NCBI GenBank assembly: GCA_964592485.1
Contig: CAZQEY010000003.1
Coordinates: forward strand, 12,218 to 76,217
Origin: an uncultured Planctomycetales bacterium
GTDB lineage: Bacteria > Omnitrophota > Gorgyraeia > Gygaellales > JAHJCI01
DNA length: 64,000 nucleotides
Direction: 5' to 3'
Every line of letters begins with the position of its first letter. Positions within the stretch are counted from its first letter, which is position 1. Below are positions 3,001 to 58,555 of this stretch, piece after piece. Made by a program: the position numbers and the translations under genes. The notes under the pieces are model-generated. The model did no database searches, was not told the DNA's origin, and saw nothing but the letters and a program-made list of their open reading frames with translations.

Positions 3001-6000
3001 CTTTCAAACAGAGCTTTATATAAAGAAAACAGAGAAAATAACCTTGAGGCAATAGCAGATGTTTACGGGATAGATATGTGCCTCGTTACATACTTAGATA
3101 TAAGATATAGCGGCGTAACTATTATTGGAGAAAATGCCGGATTGGAGTTTGTAGTGGATGGGAAATATAGAACAGGCCGTTTTGTTCTAGGCGACAATAT
3201 TTACCTATTCACAAAACAGGTATTTTTAGGAGAATCCCCCTATGCATACAGCAAGGAGACGGGAAAGATATATTATTACGGGCAAGAACTGCCCTATAAA
3301 GTAACCCCCGTAGAGCAAAAAGCAGGCACATGGAGAAGTCCGACAACCGGCGCCAAGCATTGGTATTTTAAAATTAAATACTGGGAGAATGAAGCAGACA
3401 CTATAGATGAGGAGCAGTTAACCGATTATAGCTCGCTGACCTTAAATTTTAGAGACTTCTGTCTTAATATGTGTCCTTTCTGCTGGCGGGCATATAGAGA
3501 AGAACTGCGGGCTTTTGGAAAAGAACTGATGAGGCAAAAAAATATTACAGTTGACCAAGGTATAGATATGCTTAAGAAAGCCCATGGAAAGAATGTGCTT
3601 ACAAAAGTCAAAGAAATATCGGTTGTCCAAGCCGGATTCGTTAAAGAAGAAGAGGAGTTAGACTATTTAGAAGAATTAATTATTAAATTAAGGAAAGAGG
3701 GATTTAAGGGTAGAATAATGGTTTCTACAAGCTTCGTTAGAAATCCCAACGCATATGCCAGACTTAAGGATTTAGGTTACGATATGAGCGAGTATAATTT
3801 TCCCTTAGAAGCATTTACAAATAGAGAAACCGTTCTAAGCAGAAGAAAGGCTGCGCCTTTTAAGAAGGTATTGCGAACTTTAATTATAGCAAAGCAACAT
3901 TATAGAACCGTCAGGGTATGGCTTCTGGCAGGATTAGCGGATAATCTTAGAGATTACGAAAGATTTTTTGCAATCTTATCTAAGAACAAGATAGATGCGC
4001 AAATTGGTATGTATTTTCCAATGCTTCCAAGACAAATCGGACTTCTGTCAAACGATATGGTTCGCGATCAAGAAAATAACGGACATATTCGATTTTTGTT
4101 AGATGTAGTTCGGTTAGCTAATAGATATAGTATCGCAAGGCCGGAGAGCAGCAGAAATAATGCTATCTGGCCGGCGTATATGGACAGATTTATTTATCAG
4201 GATAGCATACTTTTGACTAAAAATGAAGTTTCATTCGGGAGAAAAGGTATTTTAACTCTAAAGAGATTTATTAAAAACGGAGATTTTATTAATAAAGATA
4301 GTTTACTTGCTCCGCTTCGCCGCGAGGTAGAAAAGCAAGGGAGGATACTGTTAGGTTCGATAGAAGGAAGACAGATTTATGCTTATGTGGGCAAAGAGTT
4401 CAAGGGAAGCTTAGTTGATATGATTCAGGACAGATTTGACGAGAAATATGGATGGATATTTGCTGCTTATTTAGTTGAGGCAAAAACAGGCAAAAGAGGA
4501 GAGATTCCTATTCGTATGTTTAGAATAGAACCTGATAAGCCAAATTATTTTGAGATTACAGACCCCACTGAAAAAAGGATGATTACTGAAGAGGGTGAAA
4601 TAGTTATAAGAAAGGACAAACTCGATAATTCCGGCAGCTTGAATAAGGGTAAACTTCCTCATCCTAAATTTTATCAATATCCTAATGCGGAAGTGGAATA
4701 CAAGGCTTTGGTTGTTGATGGAGAAGAAATTATCTTAGAGGTAAGAATATTCTGGAAGGGTGAAATTATCATTAAAAAACTTTCTACAGTAAGAGATAGC
4801 AAGACAAGAAAGTTGCTATTTTCTTTTATTAAGAATTTCCACAAATTCCATATTAAACAGCATAAAGACATAATCATCCGGAGACAACTGGATAAGCGTG
4901 CAAGATTGGATATTTTGGGTCAGATGCCTTGGACAGGTTTACCTAAAGGTCTTAATCTTGATTATGCTTGGGTAGATGTAAAAATTGAAGATGCCGGGAA
5001 GATAGTTGATGTGATGTTTATTGAGGATTCCCAAGGAAGGTCAGTGCTTAATATTAATGGAGAGCCTTTTAAGATAGTTATCGGTGAAAATCTTCAAGAA
5101 CAGTTATCTCGCATAGCGCCGCGTAAAGAAAGAAGAATCGGCGTATTTGATGCTAAAACAGATAAATTGATTGCTTCCTATGAGGAGATGAGTCCGGAGG
5201 AGTTAGCTTTGATTACTGAAGAGCAATACCTAATAATTAGATTAGGCAAGCGGGGAAGGCTGGCTATCGGTGGTAAAGACTGGGGTGATTTTCATCTATT
5301 TCCTGGTGCAAAGGTCAGGCTCATTTGTTCTGAAGGCAAGGTAAAGGTTGTTAAATTTATTGCTGATAGAGAAGGAAAACCGATTCTGGATAAACAAGGT
5401 AAAGCCTTAGAGATTAAGATAGGTGAAGATGTTTTGAAGCAATTGAGAGAGAAGCTACCTTATTTTCAAGTGCGCAGCACAAAAGAGCTTTTAAGCGCGG
5501 ATAGGGTTTATGCGTTGATTGAAATGCTTCTTAATCCAGAGATTGGCACAGAGACGAAAAAACATATCCATTCTCTTCTTAAGAAAGCAGCCGAAGATGA
5601 AAGATATGTTGATGAGTTTCAAAGCCTCCTTGAAGAACCAGAGAAAGTTTCGAAGGAAAAAGTTGCCGATACTGTTATTGTATTTTTGGATACGAAGGTA
5701 GGTAGAGGTTTAATATCTACGATAGAAGCAACCAACCTAAGGAGATTTGCTAAAGATGAGAGCGGGGTTTTAGAGGCGATTAAGATATATCTTAGCAGTG
5801 ACATGAGTGATGAGGCGACAAAGATAAAGATTAGGTTGTTTGGTGCTGCTCGCGAGTTTCCTCAAGAGATAAGTGATACTATAGAAAAGATAAGGTTACA
5901 AAAAGATGGCAAGCAAGTTATTAGAAAATTGGAAAGGAGCGCTGGAGGTGGAGTATTCTTTAATTTAATTAAAAATGGTTTAAGCCTAAAGGGTATCATC

Positions 6001-24583: not shown

Positions 24584-24618
24584 CAGAGACGTTTTCCGGT
24601 TCAAACTGGAAACTGCAC
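24584..24618 (+). promoter_or_regulatory. Hairpin motif X1 of a 6-copy family (CAGAGACG-TTTTCC-loop-GGAAA-CTG)
   Basis: Stem TTTCC/GGAAA closed by CAG...CTG, 32 nt after giant-gene stop; same architecture as leader motifs A, C, D. Confidence 0.4.
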
Positions 24619-24632
24619 CTTCAAGCACAGCG

Positions 24633-24672
24633 CAGAGGCAGTTTCCCGATTGGGGTGGAAAGCGTCTGTAAA
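24633..24672 (+). promoter_or_regulatory. Leader motif A: CAGAGGCAGTTTCCCGATTGGGGTGGAAAGCGTCTGTAAAGAG, 20 nt upstream of membrane-protein gene
   Basis: Near-identical copy at 25334-25375 (motif C) and related copy at 25908-25950 (D); stem changes compensate (TTTCC/GGAAA; TTTCCCG/CGGGAAA; UUUCC/GGGAG with wobble) suggesting RNA hairpin in 5'UTR. Confidence 0.45.
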
Positions 24673-24775
24673 GAGAAAGGAGTGAGGCAAGATGAAAGTA
24701 ATGGATTCTAAAATACAAATTGGACCAATAATCCTTGGTATAAAAGCGTCTGTAAGGAGAAAGAAACGAGGTAAG

Positions 24776-25264
24776 ATGAAAGTAATGGATTCCAAAATAC
24801 CAATTGGATTAATAATCCTTAGTATAGCAGCAATCCTGATGGATTGTTATGTTGGATATGCATTTTTTCTAATGCTGGCAATGTCCCCAGCAGTTTATTT
24901 GTCTCCCATATTATTTTTAGCTATATCACTTTTCTTATTGCTACTTTTTATCAGCTCCATCATCGGTTTATTCCGATTAAAGAGATGGGCATACAATACA
25001 TTCGTTATGCTGACGTTAGTATTTAATTCATTATCACTTTTAATGGATATGGAGTATTTTATTAGAAGCGGGTATATTACTCTACAGACTCCACAGGTTT
25101 TCCTGATAGCTTTCATCGTAATATTTCTCTTTTATTTCCTTAAGCCCTCGACAAGCAGCTTGTTTGGGAAAAAAGAAGAATGTGGAATAAGAAACCCAAT
25201 ATCTCACCTCGCAGGTGCATGCAAAGGCATTAAGCAGGCAAGACAGAGACGCCTTCCGGTTTAA
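24776..25264 (+). CDS. Small integral membrane protein (about 162 aa, 4 predicted TM helices), paralog 1 of tandem pair; ORF can be extended to 24692 by an 84-nt duplicated chimeric 5' segment
   Basis: ORF with strong SD AGGAGTGAGG upstream (copy of leader); hydrophobic segments LIILSIAAILMDCYVGYAFFLML, ILFLAISLFLLLLFISSIIGLF, AYNTFVMLTLVFNSLSLLM, VFLIAFIVIFLFYFL; 78% identical to downstream paralog. Confidence 0.7.
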   Translation: MKVMDSKIPIGLIILSIAAILMDCYVGYAFFLMLAMSPAVYLSPILFLAISLFLLLLFISSIIGLFRLKRWAYNTFVMLTLVFNSLSLLMDMEYFIRSGYITLQTPQVFLIAFIVIFLFYFLKPSTSSLFGKKEECGIRNPISHLAGACKGIKQARQRRLPV

Positions 25265-25291
25265 AGCAAAGCGAAGCGGAAAGCGTCCTTG
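25244..25291 (+). promoter_or_regulatory. Hairpin motif X2 (CAGAGACG-CCTTCC-loop-GGAAAG) overlapping 3' end of membrane-protein gene 1
   Basis: Same CAGAGACG head and YTTCC...GGAAA stem as X1 and leaders A/C/D. Confidence 0.35.
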
Positions 25292-25333
25292 AGTATAGAA
25301 ATTGATAAAAAACACCTTCCAACACAACGTAAA

Positions 25334-25375
25334 AGCAGTTTCCCGATTGGCGGGAAAGCGTCTGTAGGGTGTAAA
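25334..25375 (+). promoter_or_regulatory. Leader motif C (GCAGTTTCCCGATTGGCGGGAAAGCGTCTGTAGGG) upstream of membrane-protein gene 2
   Basis: See motif A; followed by identical SD AGGAGTGAGGCAAGATG. Confidence 0.45.
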
Positions 25376-25394
25376 GAGAAAGGAGTGAGGCAAG

Positions 25395-25832
25395 ATGAAA
25401 CTGATGAACCCTAAAATACCAATTGGATTGATAATACTTAGTATAGTAGCAATCCTGATGGACTGTTATGCCGGATATGCATTTTTTATTATGTTAGCAA
25501 GGCATACAGCAGTTTATGTATCCCCCATATTATTTTTAGCTACATCACTTTTCTTATCGGTAGTTTTTATTATTCCCATCATTGGTTTGTTCCGATTAAA
25601 GAGATGGGCATACAATACATTCGTTATGCTGACATTGATATTTAATTCGTTGTTACTTTTAATGGATATGGAGTATTTTATTAGAAAAGGGTATATTACT
25701 CTACAGGCTCCACAGGTTTTCCTGATAGCTTTCATCGTAATATTTCTCTTTTATTTCCTTAAGCCCTCGACAAGCAGCTTGTTTGAAAAAAAAGAAGAGT
25801 GCAGAGTAAGAGACCAATATTACATCTGGTAG
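25395..25832 (+). CDS. Small integral membrane protein (145 aa, 4 TM), paralog 2 of tandem pair
   Basis: ORF, SD, 4 hydrophobic helices; LFRLKRWAYNTFVMLTL and C-terminal FLKPSTSSLF conserved with paralog 1. Confidence 0.75.
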   Translation: MKLMNPKIPIGLIILSIVAILMDCYAGYAFFIMLARHTAVYVSPILFLATSLFLSVVFIIPIIGLFRLKRWAYNTFVMLTLIFNSLLLLMDMEYFIRKGYITLQAPQVFLIAFIVIFLFYFLKPSTSSLFEKKEECRVRDQYYIW

Positions 25833-25907
25833 GATGACGCAAAGGCATCAAGCATCATTTATTAGATAATGGAAGAATGAAAGAAAAAAGATATCTTCCA
25901 ACGCAAT

Positions 25908-25950
25908 GCAGAGACAGTTTCCTGATTGGCGTGGGAGGCGTCTGTAAGGG
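25908..25950 (+). promoter_or_regulatory. Leader motif D (CAGAGACAGTTTCCTGATTGGCGTGGGAGGCGTCTGTAAGGGG) upstream of PilZ gene
   Basis: Third full copy of leader; not followed by a membrane-protein paralog but by the PilZ gene about 135 nt downstream. Confidence 0.4.
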
Positions 25951-46679: not shown

Positions 46680-46737
46680 TTGATTGAATTTATCTCTCGC
46701 AGCCGAGAGCTGTAATTGCCGCTCGGGAGCAATTCGC

Positions 46738-46795
46738 CCCGCCCTTTTGGGTCGTCTACGTCGAGTTTAACAAACCAAAAGGGCGGGGCTCATTG
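46738..46795 (+). repeat. REP-like variant CCCCGCCCTTTTGG-N28-CCAAAAGGGCGGGG immediately upstream of lrp SD
   Basis: Perfect 14-bp inverted repeat; arms resemble CCCCGCACCTT family. Confidence 0.5.
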
Positions 46796-50655: not shown

Positions 50656-51771
50656 ATGTCAGAAATCTACTATTCATCAGCAGCACAATGGGAGGGTTTC
50701 TTAATCGAGTTGAGGCAGTCTTTCCGCGTTTATCTGCCCCGAGCAAAAGACGACGATTATCTCTATGAAGAATACAACCCCCCACACCAAAATTATCGGT
50801 ATGGGGGTAAAGACTCAGGGTTTTTCAGTTTTAATTCCTACCGACCGGTTCAACCAATAAAATCCTTTCTATTCTATTCTAAAGAAAAGGTTGCCCAGGG
50901 TTTTGTCAAATCCTCATTGCCAGAGCCTATCCCCACGGTAGTAGTGGGGTTAAAGAACTGCGATTTGCATTCTTTGAAGGTGCAGGATTATGTGTTTACC
51001 CCGCACCTTCTCCAAAGTAGCGCAGGATTAGGGCAAGAAGGTGCGGGGTTTAAGGAAGGCATCGAGGACGACCCGTTATATAAACAAAAGAGAGAAAACA
51101 CAATTCTTATTTCCGGCGACTGCACTGGTTTTAAAGAGGTCTGCTTCTGTCTTGCCCTTGAGGTCTTACCGCATCCAGTAGAGGGATTTGATTTGAATCT
51201 TTCTCCTTTAACCGATGGATTCTTGGTTGAGGTTGGCTCTAAGCGCGGCAAGGAGTTGATTGAGAAATATCAGAAATATTTTATCAAGGCGAAGGAATCA
51301 CAGATTAGTGCCAGAGATTCCAAACGACAGAATATAATTAATGAATTAACCACCCGCCTTAGTGAAAAAAACTTGCCCAAAAAAGAGATATTACAGAAAA
51401 TTGTCAAACAGGGTTATAATGCCAGTACCTGGCAGGATTTTTGTCTTAACTGTGTAGAGTGCGGCGCCTGTAATTTTGTCTGTTGCACTTGTCATTGTTT
51501 TCTCTTAACTGATACCCAGGATAAAGATAGATATCCACGCTTGCGCATCTGGGATTCTTGCCAATACGCGAATTTTGCCCGGGTTGCCGGAGGGGCGAAT
51601 CCCTTAAAGAGGAGACAGCAACGCCTGAGGAATCGCTTTTTAAAGAAGTTTGATTTCTTTGTTGATAATCTGGGGATGCCAGCTTGTGAGGGATGCGGCA
51701 GGTGCATTGAGGCTTGCCCAGCAAAGATTGATATCAGGGAGGTCCTAAAGGATTTAGCAAAAAATGCTTAA
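50656..51771 (+). CDS. Fe-S subunit of HydB/AsrA type (sulfhydrogenase beta / anaerobic sulfite reductase subunit A-like), 371 aa; carries an apparent in-frame REP-like insertion at 50995-51054
   Basis: C-terminal CxxCxxCxxxC clusters (CLNCVECGACNFVCCTCHC; CEGCGRCIEACP); followed by HydG/AsrB-like partner. Confidence 0.6.
   Translation: MSEIYYSSAAQWEGFLIELRQSFRVYLPRAKDDDYLYEEYNPPHQNYRYGGKDSGFFSFNSYRPVQPIKSFLFYSKEKVAQGFVKSSLPEPIPTVVVGLKNCDLHSLKVQDYVFTPHLLQSSAGLGQEGAGFKEGIEDDPLYKQKRENTILISGDCTGFKEVCFCLALEVLPHPVEGFDLNLSPLTDGFLVEVGSKRGKELIEKYQKYFIKAKESQISARDSKRQNIINELTTRLSEKNLPKKEILQKIVKQGYNASTWQDFCLNCVECGACNFVCCTCHCFLLTDTQDKDRYPRLRIWDSCQYANFARVAGGANPLKRRQQRLRNRFLKKFDFFVDNLGMPACEGCGRCIEACPAKIDIREVLKDLAKNA
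50995..51054 (+). repeat. REP-like element copy 3 (TTTACCCCGCACCTTCTCCAAAGTAGCGCAGGATTAGGGCAAGAAGGTGCGGGGTTTAAGG) located inside CDS 50656-51771
   Basis: Perfect 13-bp arms CCCCGCACCTTCT / AGAAGGTGCGGGG; interior nearly identical to intergenic copy 1. Confidence 0.6.
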
Positions 51772-52573
51772 TATATATCAGCCTTTGCCAATACTAGTTG
51801 AGGAGATAATTGAAGAAACCCCTACGATAAAGACCTTTGTCTTGCGTCCCGAAGAGGATTTTAGTTTCAATACCGGACAGTTCGTAGAATTAGGCTTAGC
51901 CGGCTTAGGTGAGGCTCCGTTTACTCCCTCATCTGACCCAAATATAAAAGAGAGATTAGAGATAACCATTATGAATGTTGGCAGCTTGACCTTGCAGCTG
52001 CATTCTTTGAACAAAAATACTCGCTTAGGTATTCGCGGGCCTTTTGGCAAGGGGTATCCCTTGGAAGAATTTAAGGGCAGGGAGATTGTTATTGTTGGCG
52101 GTGGGGTAGGGTTGGCGCCTTTGCGCTCATTATTGTTGAGTCTGTTTTCAGAACTTGGCCAATACAAAAAGGTATTATTAAGGTATGGCGCGCGCACGCC
52201 CAAGGATATGCTCTACCGCAGCCTTCTGGGTAAATGGGCTAAAAAAATTGATGTGGTAACTACTGTAGATGCAGCTGAAAAGGGATATAAGGGCAACGTC
52301 GGTCTGGTAACCACAATATTAAAGGATTTTCCTGTTGATGTTAAACAAGCGGTTGCGGTTGTCTGCGGGCCACCAATAATGATGAAATTTACCACTTTAA
52401 AACTTCTTGATTTAGGGTTTAGTTCATCAAATATATATCTTTCTATGGAGAAGAATATGTCCTGCGGCTTAGGAAAATGCGGTCATTGCCGGATTGGTAG
52501 ATACTACGTGTGCAAGGATGGTCCGGTATTTACCTATGCTCAATTGCAGGATATACCGGATATTTGGGATTGA
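51764..52573 (+). CDS. FAD/NAD(P)H-binding 2Fe-2S oxidoreductase subunit (HydG / AsrB / PyrK family)
   Basis: Ferredoxin-reductase-type fold (RPEEDFSFNTGQFVEL; GGGVGLAPL) plus C-terminal CGLGKCGHCRIGRYYVCKDGPVF 2Fe-2S motif. Confidence 0.7.
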   Translation: MLNIYQPLPILVEEIIEETPTIKTFVLRPEEDFSFNTGQFVELGLAGLGEAPFTPSSDPNIKERLEITIMNVGSLTLQLHSLNKNTRLGIRGPFGKGYPLEEFKGREIVIVGGGVGLAPLRSLLLSLFSELGQYKKVLLRYGARTPKDMLYRSLLGKWAKKIDVVTTVDAAEKGYKGNVGLVTTILKDFPVDVKQAVAVVCGPPIMMKFTTLKLLDLGFSSSNIYLSMEKNMSCGLGKCGHCRIGRYYVCKDGPVFTYAQLQDIPDIWD

Positions 52574-52578
52574 TTCAT

Positions 52579-53070
52579 ATGAAGAGACTATTTGTTGATT
52601 TAGAAGTCTGTAACAAATGTCCTGAATGCGTGGTAAAGTGTAGTTACTTTTATCATCCCCAGAATAACGGTATCGCCAATTTACGCGAGTATGCTACCTT
52701 TGCCCTTTATTGCCGGCAGTGCGAGGAGGCTCCTTGCGTTAATGCCTGTTATCATGAGGCATTGGAAAAACAAGTAGATGGGACTCTCAAGCGTTATAAG
52801 ATGCGCTGCACCAGTTGTAAATCCTGTAGTATTGCCTGTCCGTTTGGCACAATATTTCCTGATTTTATCCCTTATCTGGACTCAAGATGCGATTATTGTG
52901 TAGGCGTAACAAAAGAGTTACCCGAATGTATTCTCACCTGTCCCTACAAGGCAGTGGAAATAAAGGAGATTAAGGAAAACCCCGAGGCAGACATCTATTT
53001 TGTGGGTAAGAACCTGGCTGTGCATTCGCGTAAGTGGGTCAAGGAAGAGGTTAGTCAAAAGAAAAAATGA
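52579..53070 (+). CDS. 4Fe-4S dicluster electron-transfer protein (HycB/HydN-like)
   Basis: Multiple Cys-rich ferredoxin motifs (CNKCPECVVKC; CRQCEEAPCVNAC; CTSCKSCSIACP; CDYCVG...CILTCP). Confidence 0.6.
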   Translation: MKRLFVDLEVCNKCPECVVKCSYFYHPQNNGIANLREYATFALYCRQCEEAPCVNACYHEALEKQVDGTLKRYKMRCTSCKSCSIACPFGTIFPDFIPYLDSRCDYCVGVTKELPECILTCPYKAVEIKEIKENPEADIYFVGKNLAVHSRKWVKEEVSQKKK

Positions 53071-53071
53071 C

Positions 53072-53172
53072 CCCGCACCTTCTTAATATTTACAATTCAT
53101 TTTTAATAAAGGTGTAGGGTTAAAAGATATATAGATAATAAAATTAAGAATAAAAGAGAAGGTGCGGGGTGA
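53072..53172 (+). repeat. REP-like element copy 4 (arms ACCCCGCACCTTCTT / AAGAAGGTGCGGGGT separated by ~70 nt AT-rich)
   Basis: Read directly; right arm overlaps SD/GTG start of nuoH-like gene. Confidence 0.55.
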
Positions 53173-54077
53173 TATTATTTAACTACTTAATCTTTCCCGG
53201 ATTTTTATTCAGTGCAATCATTGGTTTGATTGCCGGATGGGTTGACCGTAAGGTCACAGCACGGATTCAATGGCGGGTTGGTCCGCCCTGGTATCAGAAC
53301 TTCGTCGATTTCTTAAAACTTCTGGGCAAAGAAACAATCCTGCCGCGAAGTAGTAAATTTACATTCTTACTTGTCCCTCTGCTGGGATTAATCTCAGTTA
53401 CGCTGGTTGCCACTATTGTGGGAAGACTGTTAATGAATCCTGCCGAATCCTTTTTAGGGGATTTGATAGTGGTGTTATATCTGTTGATAATACCGGCGAT
53501 TGCCTTAATCCTGGGGGGCAGCGCTTCCGGTAATCCCCTGGCTTCTACTGGCGTATCCAGGGAGATGAAGTTGGTTCTGGCTTATGAGCTCCCCTTTATT
53601 CTGGCGGTGATTACTGTAATGATAAAAGCAGGAAACACAATCAGATTGGGCGAGATTCTTGCTTATCAGATAGGTAATGGCGCGATGTTGGGGTCGGTCT
53701 CAGGATGGCTGGCCTTTATTGTTGCAATATTATGTATGCAGGCAAAACTGGGATTGGTTCCCTTTGATGTTTCTGAAGCTGAACAGGAGATTATGTCCGG
53801 AGTACTTATTGAGTATTCAGGATTTACTCTGGCAATATTTAAACTGATGAAATCAATACTTCTGTATGTTATGCCTTTATTTTTAATCAGCCTGTTCTGG
53901 GCAGCAAATATAGGAGTCCTTTCCTTGGTTGGTAAATATGTTGCCTTACTGGTCATCATTATCTTGATTAAGAATACCAGTCCCCGCTTAAGGATTGACC
54001 AAGCATTTAAGTTTTTCTGGGGACCGATTACAGTCCTCGCAGTTATAGCAGTAATTTCAGCCCTGCTCGGGCTGTAA
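53169..54077 (+). CDS. Membrane subunit of group 4 [NiFe] hydrogenase / complex I NuoH family (MbhM/HycD/EchB-like)
   Basis: 8 TM helices; GWVDRKVTARIQWRVGPP and GNPLASTGVSREMKLVLAYELPF match NuoH signatures; GTG start. Confidence 0.75.
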   Translation: MILFNYLIFPGFLFSAIIGLIAGWVDRKVTARIQWRVGPPWYQNFVDFLKLLGKETILPRSSKFTFLLVPLLGLISVTLVATIVGRLLMNPAESFLGDLIVVLYLLIIPAIALILGGSASGNPLASTGVSREMKLVLAYELPFILAVITVMIKAGNTIRLGEILAYQIGNGAMLGSVSGWLAFIVAILCMQAKLGLVPFDVSEAEQEIMSGVLIEYSGFTLAIFKLMKSILLYVMPLFLISLFWAANIGVLSLVGKYVALLVIIILIKNTSPRLRIDQAFKFFWGPITVLAVIAVISALLGL

Positions 54078-58489: not shown

Positions 58490-58555
58490 AGACCCCGCAC
58501 CTTTCTACTGCGTAGAGACACTTCGTAGCAAAAAGGTGCGGGGTAAGTTCGACCG
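58490..58555 (+). repeat. REP-like element copy 5 (ACCCCGCACCTTTCT...AAAAAGGTGCGGGGTAA) plus adjacent AAACTTACG...CGTAAGTTT hairpin
   Basis: Read directly in 177-nt gap inside the mbh/mrp operon. Confidence 0.55.

Follow-up and report, generated by a model that had tools for sequence, protein, structure and literature searches.

The stretch of DNA analysed here, hereafter the window, is 64,000 nucleotides (nt) long and carries on the plus strand, at 50656-51771, a hydB/asrA-like gene for an iron-sulfur (Fe-S) subunit of 371 residues, the first of a hydBG-like pair that is followed by mbh/nuo-like genes. Inside this gene, at 50999-51048, lies a 50-nt palindrome, of which related copies exist both in the rest of the window and across many further genomes. 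An earlier note on this DNA had described it as a repeat resembling repetitive extragenic palindromic (REP) elements, inserted in-frame in a HydB/AsrA-like coding sequence.

The host protein is a HydB/AsrA-type Fe-S subunit, with a C-terminal Fer4_22 dicluster domain and a sulfhydrogenase beta fold. Pfam Fer4_22 (PF17179) is detected in the host open reading frame (ORF) with an E-value of 2.7e-28 and 99 bits against a cutoff of 27, phmmer matches the protein to the beta subunit of Pyrococcus furiosus sulfhydrogenase I (SHI; 9nez_B) with an E-value of 5e-32, and its top database matches are Omnitrophota proteins. The AlphaFold2 (AF2) model, based on 120 homologues, has a mean predicted local distance difference test score (pLDDT) of 84.6 and a predicted template modelling score (pTM) of 0.86, and compares with 9nez_B at template modelling (TM) scores of 0.79/0.85; an earlier model from 29 sequences was discarded as too poor (pLDDT 52). 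The two proteins share the fold, the Fer4_22 cysteine motifs and a HydG-like FAD/NAD partner encoded next door, but they are 28% identical, and SHI beta is without both inserts that are specific to the window protein. Unlike that of P. furiosus SHI, the operon in the window runs on into mbh/nuo-like membrane subunits: the downstream order is a HydG-like FAD/NAD subunit, a ferredoxin, and nuoH-, nuoB-, nuoC- and nuoD/NiFe-like genes, and this synteny is kept in loci L001-L008. The public protein for the host gene, P0001, starts at Met19 and has 353 residues, and thus leaves out 50656-50709. This start is probably 18 codons short, because the homologues align from the ATG at 50656 (MSEIYYS...).

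The element consists of two perfectly complementary arms of 13 bp around a loop. The left terminal inverted repeat, CCCCGCACCTTCT, occupies 50999-51011 and the right one, AGAAGGTGCGGGG, which contains the Shine-Dalgarno-like motif AGAAGG, occupies 51036-51048; the left 13-mer also ends at least 60 copies in other genomes. Between the arms, at 51012-51035, the 24-nt loop CCAAAGTAGCGCAGGATTAGGGCA codes on the plus strand for QSSAGLGQ; loops differ among members of the family, and this one is common to the hydB copies. On both sides stands TTTA (50995-50998 and 51049-51052), which we read as a target duplication on the basis of the empty site in relatives, GTATTTAAGG, where TTTA is single. With 4 nt of duplicated target, the 50-nt element makes an insert of 54 nt, that is 18 codons, encoding TPHLLQSSAGLGQEGAGF. 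Translation across the insert gives VQDYVF-TPHLLQSSAGLGQEGAGF-KEG, wholly within ORF 50656-51771, and agrees with the peptide in the earlier note, which had placed the palindrome inside the ORF with the frame unbroken. The predicted tryptic peptide with the insert is VQDYVFTPHLLQSSAGLGQEGAGFK, and its counterpart without the insert is VQDYVFK. Of the three plus-strand frames at the element, the host-gene frame alone is free of stops; counting both strands, three of the six frames are open, which by our estimate is about what random 50-mers give, and we make no claim that open frames are an adaptation.

Both the structure and the recurrence of the arms are well beyond chance. The folding energy of the element is -29 kcal/mol as RNA (z = -4.9, with none of 200 shuffles equally good) and -17 kcal/mol as DNA (z = -5.9). 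With up to two mismatches allowed, the window contains 10 occurrences of the arm motif where 1.04 would be expected, and none of 100 shuffles reached 10; the arm pairs are exact at 50999/51036 and 53071/53157 and near-exact at 58493/58531.

Alignment to orthologous proteins reveals an insertion of 18 residues, close to the roughly 20 that the earlier note had proposed to look for in such a comparison. Of 119 homologues, 114 are without the segment. When 29 sequences (28 distinct proteins) are aligned, it is present only in the window protein, P0002, P0003, P0005 and P0006, and the larger set of 120 proteins adds one further carrier of the peptide, P0012. The nearest relative, P0004, and all distant homologues are without it, and P. 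furiosus HydB (9nez_B) has a gap at this position. At the nucleotide level, relatives with 93-95% identity have exact empty hydB sites, the filled site reading GTATTTA[CCCC...GGGG TTTA]AGG. When the empty locus L059 is compared with the filled locus L001 (93-94% identical), the BLAST alignment breaks exactly at the element and its segments overlap by the 4 nt TTTA. The loci L002 and L005 are 92-96% identical, and L002 is empty here but has the element some 100 nt further upstream, where it stands in place of 30 nt of variable linker and is again in frame; this second position in hydB is occupied in L002 and L061. A metagenome scan for further hydB alleles returned only two close loci, both known alleles. 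On comparison of sequences, 50999-51048 is thus shown to be an insertion relative to the orthologues, with filled and empty sites, a target duplication and a kept frame, which bears out the central claim of the earlier note. The element would have landed at TTTA inside an ancestral ...VQDYVF|KEGIE..., and the gene would be read through because 54 nt make 18 codons and the phase ACC-CCG-CAC is stop-free.

The protein gains an 18-residue, mostly polar, Gly-rich loop (residues 115-132), and its fold and all cluster cysteines are unharmed by the insert. In the AF2 model the insert lies between helices 101-119 and 140-147, and the block 121-130 has a mean pLDDT of 49, against 94-96 in the neighbouring blocks; this agrees with a disordered linker that is probably exposed on the surface. 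The hydB copy is most likely a tolerated passenger, and we infer that the insert is translated and neutral.

The hydB-like gene contains a second palindromic in-frame insert at 50776-50808. These 33 nt, AACCCCCCACACCAAAATTATCGGTATGGGGGT, encode NPPHQNYRYGG and are missing in all 119 homologues, and L003 has the empty site GAATAC|AAAGAC. The insert forms an RNA hairpin of -15 kcal/mol (z = -2.8) and is of low confidence in the AF2 model; its ends (ACCCC...GGGGT) resemble those of the main family, and there is no further copy of it in the window. The hydB-like gene of L007 (1572-2687) has a 30-nt in-frame extra segment with a perfect 24-nt palindrome, CCCGTTCCTGCG|CGCAGGAACGGG, which adds QEKTRSCAQE in the C-terminal Cys-rich (Fer4_22) region. 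Small palindromes seem to strike this gene family repeatedly.

The element at 50999-51048 belongs to a dispersed family. An exact-arm pattern scan over one genome per species gave 50 loci in 22 assemblies. By label, 11 of these assemblies belong to Omnitrophota, 10 to Planctomycetota (among them Phycisphaerae, Sedimentisphaerales and Planctomycetia) and one to Microbacterium; at the Microbacterium locus (L057) the arms are exact but the 4-nt flanks do not match, and it is probably a chance or unrelated match. Single assemblies hold up to 10 such loci (MHFG01, followed by JAQTPE01 with 7). Most of the 67 non-redundant copies are 46-59 nt long, and a few reach 99-115 nt with heterogeneous interiors. 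The copies are too short for a transposase gene, and their terminal inverted repeats are 13 bp long and perfect. Identical 4-nt flanks are found in 40 of the 67 copies, compared with 1-2 of 67 at offset controls, and have the form TNNA: TGAA/TTCA in 29 cases, TTTA/TAAA in 5 and TTGA in 4. Because the middle two bases vary and yet match on both sides, these flanks are true target duplications. There are four pairs of filled and empty sites at 89-95% identity, and TTTA or TGAA is single at empty sites. The reading of the earlier note, an inserted palindromic repeat, is supported by the further copies in the window and in other genomes, by the inverted ends and by the target duplication.

The window itself has three copies of the family. 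The second, of 99 nt at 53071-53169, is treated below together with gene starts. The third (58493-58543) is intergenic, between an antiporter-like gene and an mbhD/E-like gene; its arms are slightly diverged (CCCCGCACCTTTC / AAAAGGTGCGGGG), its fold reaches -31.6 kcal/mol (z = -6.3), and the flanking tetranucleotides, TAGA and TAAG, differ from each other. Sister families with the arms CCCCGCCCTTCCT or CCCCGCCCTTTCT and the flanks TGAG, TGAA or TTTA were seen in L069, L074 and L076, and 46733-46792, just upstream of a gene start, holds a palindrome that is related yet distinct, CCCCGCCCTTTTGG...CCAAAAGGGCGGGG.

Database and literature searches returned no earlier description. There was no gathering-score match to Rfam in the whole window, where sub-threshold noise across 50900-53300 was the only signal, and there were no matches to the element in viral_contigs. 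A search for the arm sequences in full-text literature gave only papers that were unrelated, as judged by title, and a search for literature on Omnitrophica with palindromic elements gave nothing relevant. Since the element is short and dispersed, has no transposase of its own, and shows inverted repeats and a target duplication, it agrees with the structural definition of a miniature inverted-repeat transposable element (MITE). Taken together, 50999-51048 is very probably one copy of a dispersed, non-autonomous palindromic mobile element of about 50 bp, inserted in-frame at TTTA in the hydB/asrA-like gene. Its movement would be by transposition, presumably mobilised by some enzyme. The family would insert at TNNA, mostly TGAA/TTCA, and would survive only where frames or gene starts are preserved.

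Copies also lie in phase inside long ORFs of at least six other genes. The element stands between the two domains of a CbiA/CobB-like amidotransferase (L026), between domains of a BadF-type activase of 1474 residues (L036), in-frame in a GH94-like protein (L047), and in ArgJ (L055) and TsaC/YrdC (L056), whose alignments to the respective solved structures break or gap exactly at the element. A Planctomycetota DNA methyltransferase carries it in-frame near the C-terminus in L037 (3957-4006), L039, L042, L031 and L139. Two reading phases are in use, giving TPHLL...EGAG or PAPS...RRCG, and at every in-frame copy the element and its duplication together are a multiple of three. An orientation that introduced a stop would be purged by selection, at least in the methyltransferase. 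The copy in L048 is actually upstream of the panC start and not intragenic. A phmmer search of the CbiA-like protein against the PDB gave only spurious RecA P-loop matches. In L005 an aminotransferase gene ends within a copy (4473-4522), which contributes its final six codons (DPAPST) and its TAG stop.

The history of the insertions was followed in neighbour-joining trees, built without the insert columns and without support values, and by Fitch parsimony. In both trees, for hydB and for the methyltransferase, every carrier is a singleton beside an element-free sister. The five hydB carriers demand a minimum of five changes with absence as the root state, and the six methyltransferase carriers among 56 taxa a minimum of six. 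Two methyltransferase pairs of about 89% identity show the empty site AGAATGAATAAC against the filled site AGAATGAA[...]TGAATAAC, and the elements are identical between methyltransferase carriers at 48-50 of 50 positions (96-100%), compared with 53-66% in the adjacent 180 nt. The simplest reading of these patterns is that a conserved element has entered the same site repeatedly and recently.

Several points weigh against a mobile element that sits in hydB purely as a passenger. All sequences are from metagenome assemblies, and the taxon labels are those of the depositors. The 791 kb of loci retrieved contained no arm pairs 600-3500 nt apart with matching flanks, as an autonomous element with a transposase would show. 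The mobile-element reading offers no mechanism for insertions that recur at an identical position. Among the five hydB carriers, 1 of 9 third-codon positions varies in the arms, compared with 56 of 72 in the flanks (p = 1.7e-4), and the loop varies at the same rate as the flanks. The conservation of the arms therefore points to recent or recurrent insertion or to selection at the nucleotide level, and not to a purely neutral old passenger. The loop was considered as a target guide, as the window loop and the upstream flank both contain GCAGGATTA, which we take as coincidence; over 61 copies, the longest match of the loop averaged 5.74 nt to its own flank and 5.45 nt to the flanks of other copies, and the idea was dropped.

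A single ancient insertion in hydB, followed by repeated precise excision through hairpin-promoted slippage between the 4-bp repeats, would take the place of the repeated gains, and we regard it as unlikely. Deletion between short direct repeats stimulated by hairpins is an established process, orientation and loop type are identical in all carriers, and the loops of L001 and L005 differ at 7 of 24 positions, equal to the third-position divergence of 21 of 72. The parsimony counts, however, give one change per carrier in hydB (with absence at the root) as well as in the methyltransferase, and the scenario demands strong selection on the hydB arms and on the whole methyltransferase element although the element would be repeatedly lost.

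Selection at the nucleotide level is also the core of another alternative, in which the intragenic hairpin is functional, for instance in mRNA processing or stability, as a translational pause or as a protein-binding site. It would account for the conserved third positions of the hydB arms, for the near-identity of the methyltransferase elements beside diverged neighbouring sequence, and for the very stable RNA fold, but we consider it quite improbable. In both genes the closest sampled relative of each carrier is without the element, which is why we regard the element as dispensable; no compensatory changes were observed in the arms, the hydB loop varies as fast as the flanks, and recent independent insertions of a conserved element explain the high conservation equally well.

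Two further explanations can be dismissed. That the segment is an ancestral protein loop, palindromic by accident and deleted in most relatives, and not mobile DNA, is extremely improbable. The region is indeed a variable-length linker in the protein family, but the 13-nt arms recur unchanged at loci that have nothing to do with one another, both in the window and in 22 assemblies, a 4-bp target duplication is present, the segment is missing in all distant homologues, and the element occupies a second position in L002 and L061. The alternative offered by the earlier note, in which translation truly begins after the element and leaves out the 113-130 codons before it, found no support (the public P0001 merely begins 18 codons after ATG 50656) and is rejected as hardly credible because residues 1-113 are conserved across the 120 homologues, with K69, F71, G98, K100, C102, Q110, D111 and V113 invariant just upstream of the insert, and are in large part modelled at pLDDT 91-96; the N-terminal region aligns to residues 13-111 of SHI beta, the frame is open through the element in six lineages, and the right end of the element here yields GTT and not a start codon.

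Copies of the family are also associated with gene starts, and about half of all copies adjoin one. At 47 of 134 element ends, the last base of the element and the TG of the flank form ATG or GTG. From 33 of these 47 ends (70%) an ORF of at least 80 codons opens, compared with 26% at random [AG]TGA[AG] sites in the same loci, and in 26 of the 33 an in-frame stop lies within 20 codons upstream. In all eight start-abutting ORFs tested, including those for AlaRS, ribosomal protein L17 and an epimerase, the Pfam domains begin at the predicted N-terminus. The association of copies with gene starts is thus shown. AGAAGG in the right arm lies about 6 nt before the start codon, and three gene starts read in the window are likewise preceded by a Shine-Dalgarno-like sequence of the GGAG type. 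In 11 copies the TGA in the left flank serves in addition as the stop of an upstream ORF.

The copy at 53071-53169 is of this kind. It lies on the plus strand between the Fe-S (ferredoxin) gene and the nuoH-like gene, the ferredoxin stop TGA (53068-53070) being its left flank, and its last G together with the following TG provides a GTG start at 53169. Pfam NADHdh matches the nuoH-like ORF from residue 14. In the element-free L003 the ferredoxin and nuoH-like genes overlap in ATGA. At the same junction, L002 (4028-4100) and L008 (4214-4295) each carry an unrelated palindromic repeat, of the GTCAC/GTGAC type in one and of the GTTATAGCG/CGCAATAAC type in the other. The mycobacterial interspersed repetitive units (MIRUs) of Mycobacterium, which Supply and colleagues are said to have described in 1997, reportedly also lie between operon genes with the flanking stop and start codons preserved or overlapped, like this copy. 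They are, however, said to be tandem direct repeats and not palindromes with target duplications, and so not homologous to the present element.

At stop-element-start junctions, the hairpin would keep the Shine-Dalgarno-like motif inaccessible, and a ribosome that finishes translating the upstream gene would open it and so couple translation of the upstream and downstream genes. A broader picture, in which the family is a gene-compatible, homing-like miniature transposon of two phyla of the Planctomycetes-Verrucomicrobia-Chlamydiae (PVC) superphylum, with recurrent insertion at the same TNNA and a portable translation-initiation or coupling cassette with a masked Shine-Dalgarno-like motif, is possible, though we put it forward as tentative and somewhat doubtful.

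The closest known behaviour is that of the Rickettsia palindromic elements (RPEs), which PMC10969869, summarising Ogata et al. (2000, 2002), gives as about 100-150 bp long and confined to Rickettsia. According to the same source, RPEs are likewise short palindromes that lie in-frame in unrelated conserved housekeeping genes, adding loops and leaving the protein intact, and are intergenic as well. The present element, at about 50 bp (46-51 bp) and in metagenome-assembled genomes labelled Omnitrophota or Planctomycetota, is set apart from RPE families 1-10 by size and host. It may further differ in its perfect 13-bp inverted ends and 4-bp TNNA duplication, and the recurrent same-site gains and start-codon abutment are to be set beside the RPE pattern. 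The earlier note held that in-frame palindromes are known from RPEs and are otherwise rare; they are not confined to Rickettsia, as intragenic REP, ERIC, QMITE1 and Anabaena MITE copies are on record (PMC3733652, PMC10969869).

MITEs such as Correia/NEMIS, ERIC, RUP and Nezha are similar in being non-coding, dispersed and often gene-adjacent, with inverted repeats and target duplications (PMC10969869, PMC3733652). They also form stable RNA hairpins, and some are intragenic and in-frame (PMC10969869, PMC3733652). They differ in size, usually 70-300 bp against about 50 bp here, and in the duplication, for example TA in Correia against the 4-bp TNNA. An outward Shine-Dalgarno-like motif with a start codon is not given as a MITE property in PMC10969869 or PMC3733652. 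REP/REPIN elements, which are mobilised by RAYT (Y1) transposases, share the short GC-rich palindrome, are partly in-frame in genes or provide stop codons, and are present in the PVC superphylum (PMC3733652). However, a REP is a palindrome of 20-40 bp that is tagged with GTAG or CGTC on one side (PMC3733652), while the ends here are CCCC...GGGG in all copies. GTAG is present only inside the loop of some family copies, and unlike REPs the present element is bracketed by real 4-bp target duplications. Collectively, this is an undescribed MITE-like family with RPE-like behaviour, and the type of event is itself already known. We did not find the outward Shine-Dalgarno-like motif with start codon, or the recurrent same-site insertion, described.

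These results extend selfish intragenic palindromes, best known from Rickettsia, to Omnitrophota and Planctomycetota that are free-living and uncultivated and whose genes are tightly packed. The near-identical filled and empty alleles in several conserved enzymes are a clean natural experiment. In evolutionary terms, loops of 15-19 residues have been added to conserved enzymes and native ribosome-binding sites replaced at dozens of genes, and gene callers and alignments will misplace starts or score spurious insertions at such elements. If real target choice lies behind the recurrence at one site, a targeting mechanism still to be understood would belong to a DNA element of very small size. 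If the cassette proposal is also true, the element would be more than junk tolerated in loops, with strong target choice and translation coupling at stop-element-start junctions.

The window has further repeats and one very long gene outside the hydB-like locus. A different repeat with the core ACGTAAGTTTG occurs in inverted copies about 12 kb apart, at 46588-46624/58562-58598 and also at 46669-46692/58544-58567. Its copies bracket the glnA-rex-hydBG-mbh-like region, and one adjoins the element copy at 58493. At 73-24552, a single ORF of 8159 residues forms a giant multi-domain gene of unrelated enzyme domains, among them DOT1-like and other methyltransferases, HAD, radical SAM, isochorismatase, TPR, CN-hydrolase, alanine dehydrogenase/PNT and HTH. 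It is followed at 24616-25936 by tandem units of about 619 nt with 76-88% identity, each with a small ORF and its own ribosome-binding site.

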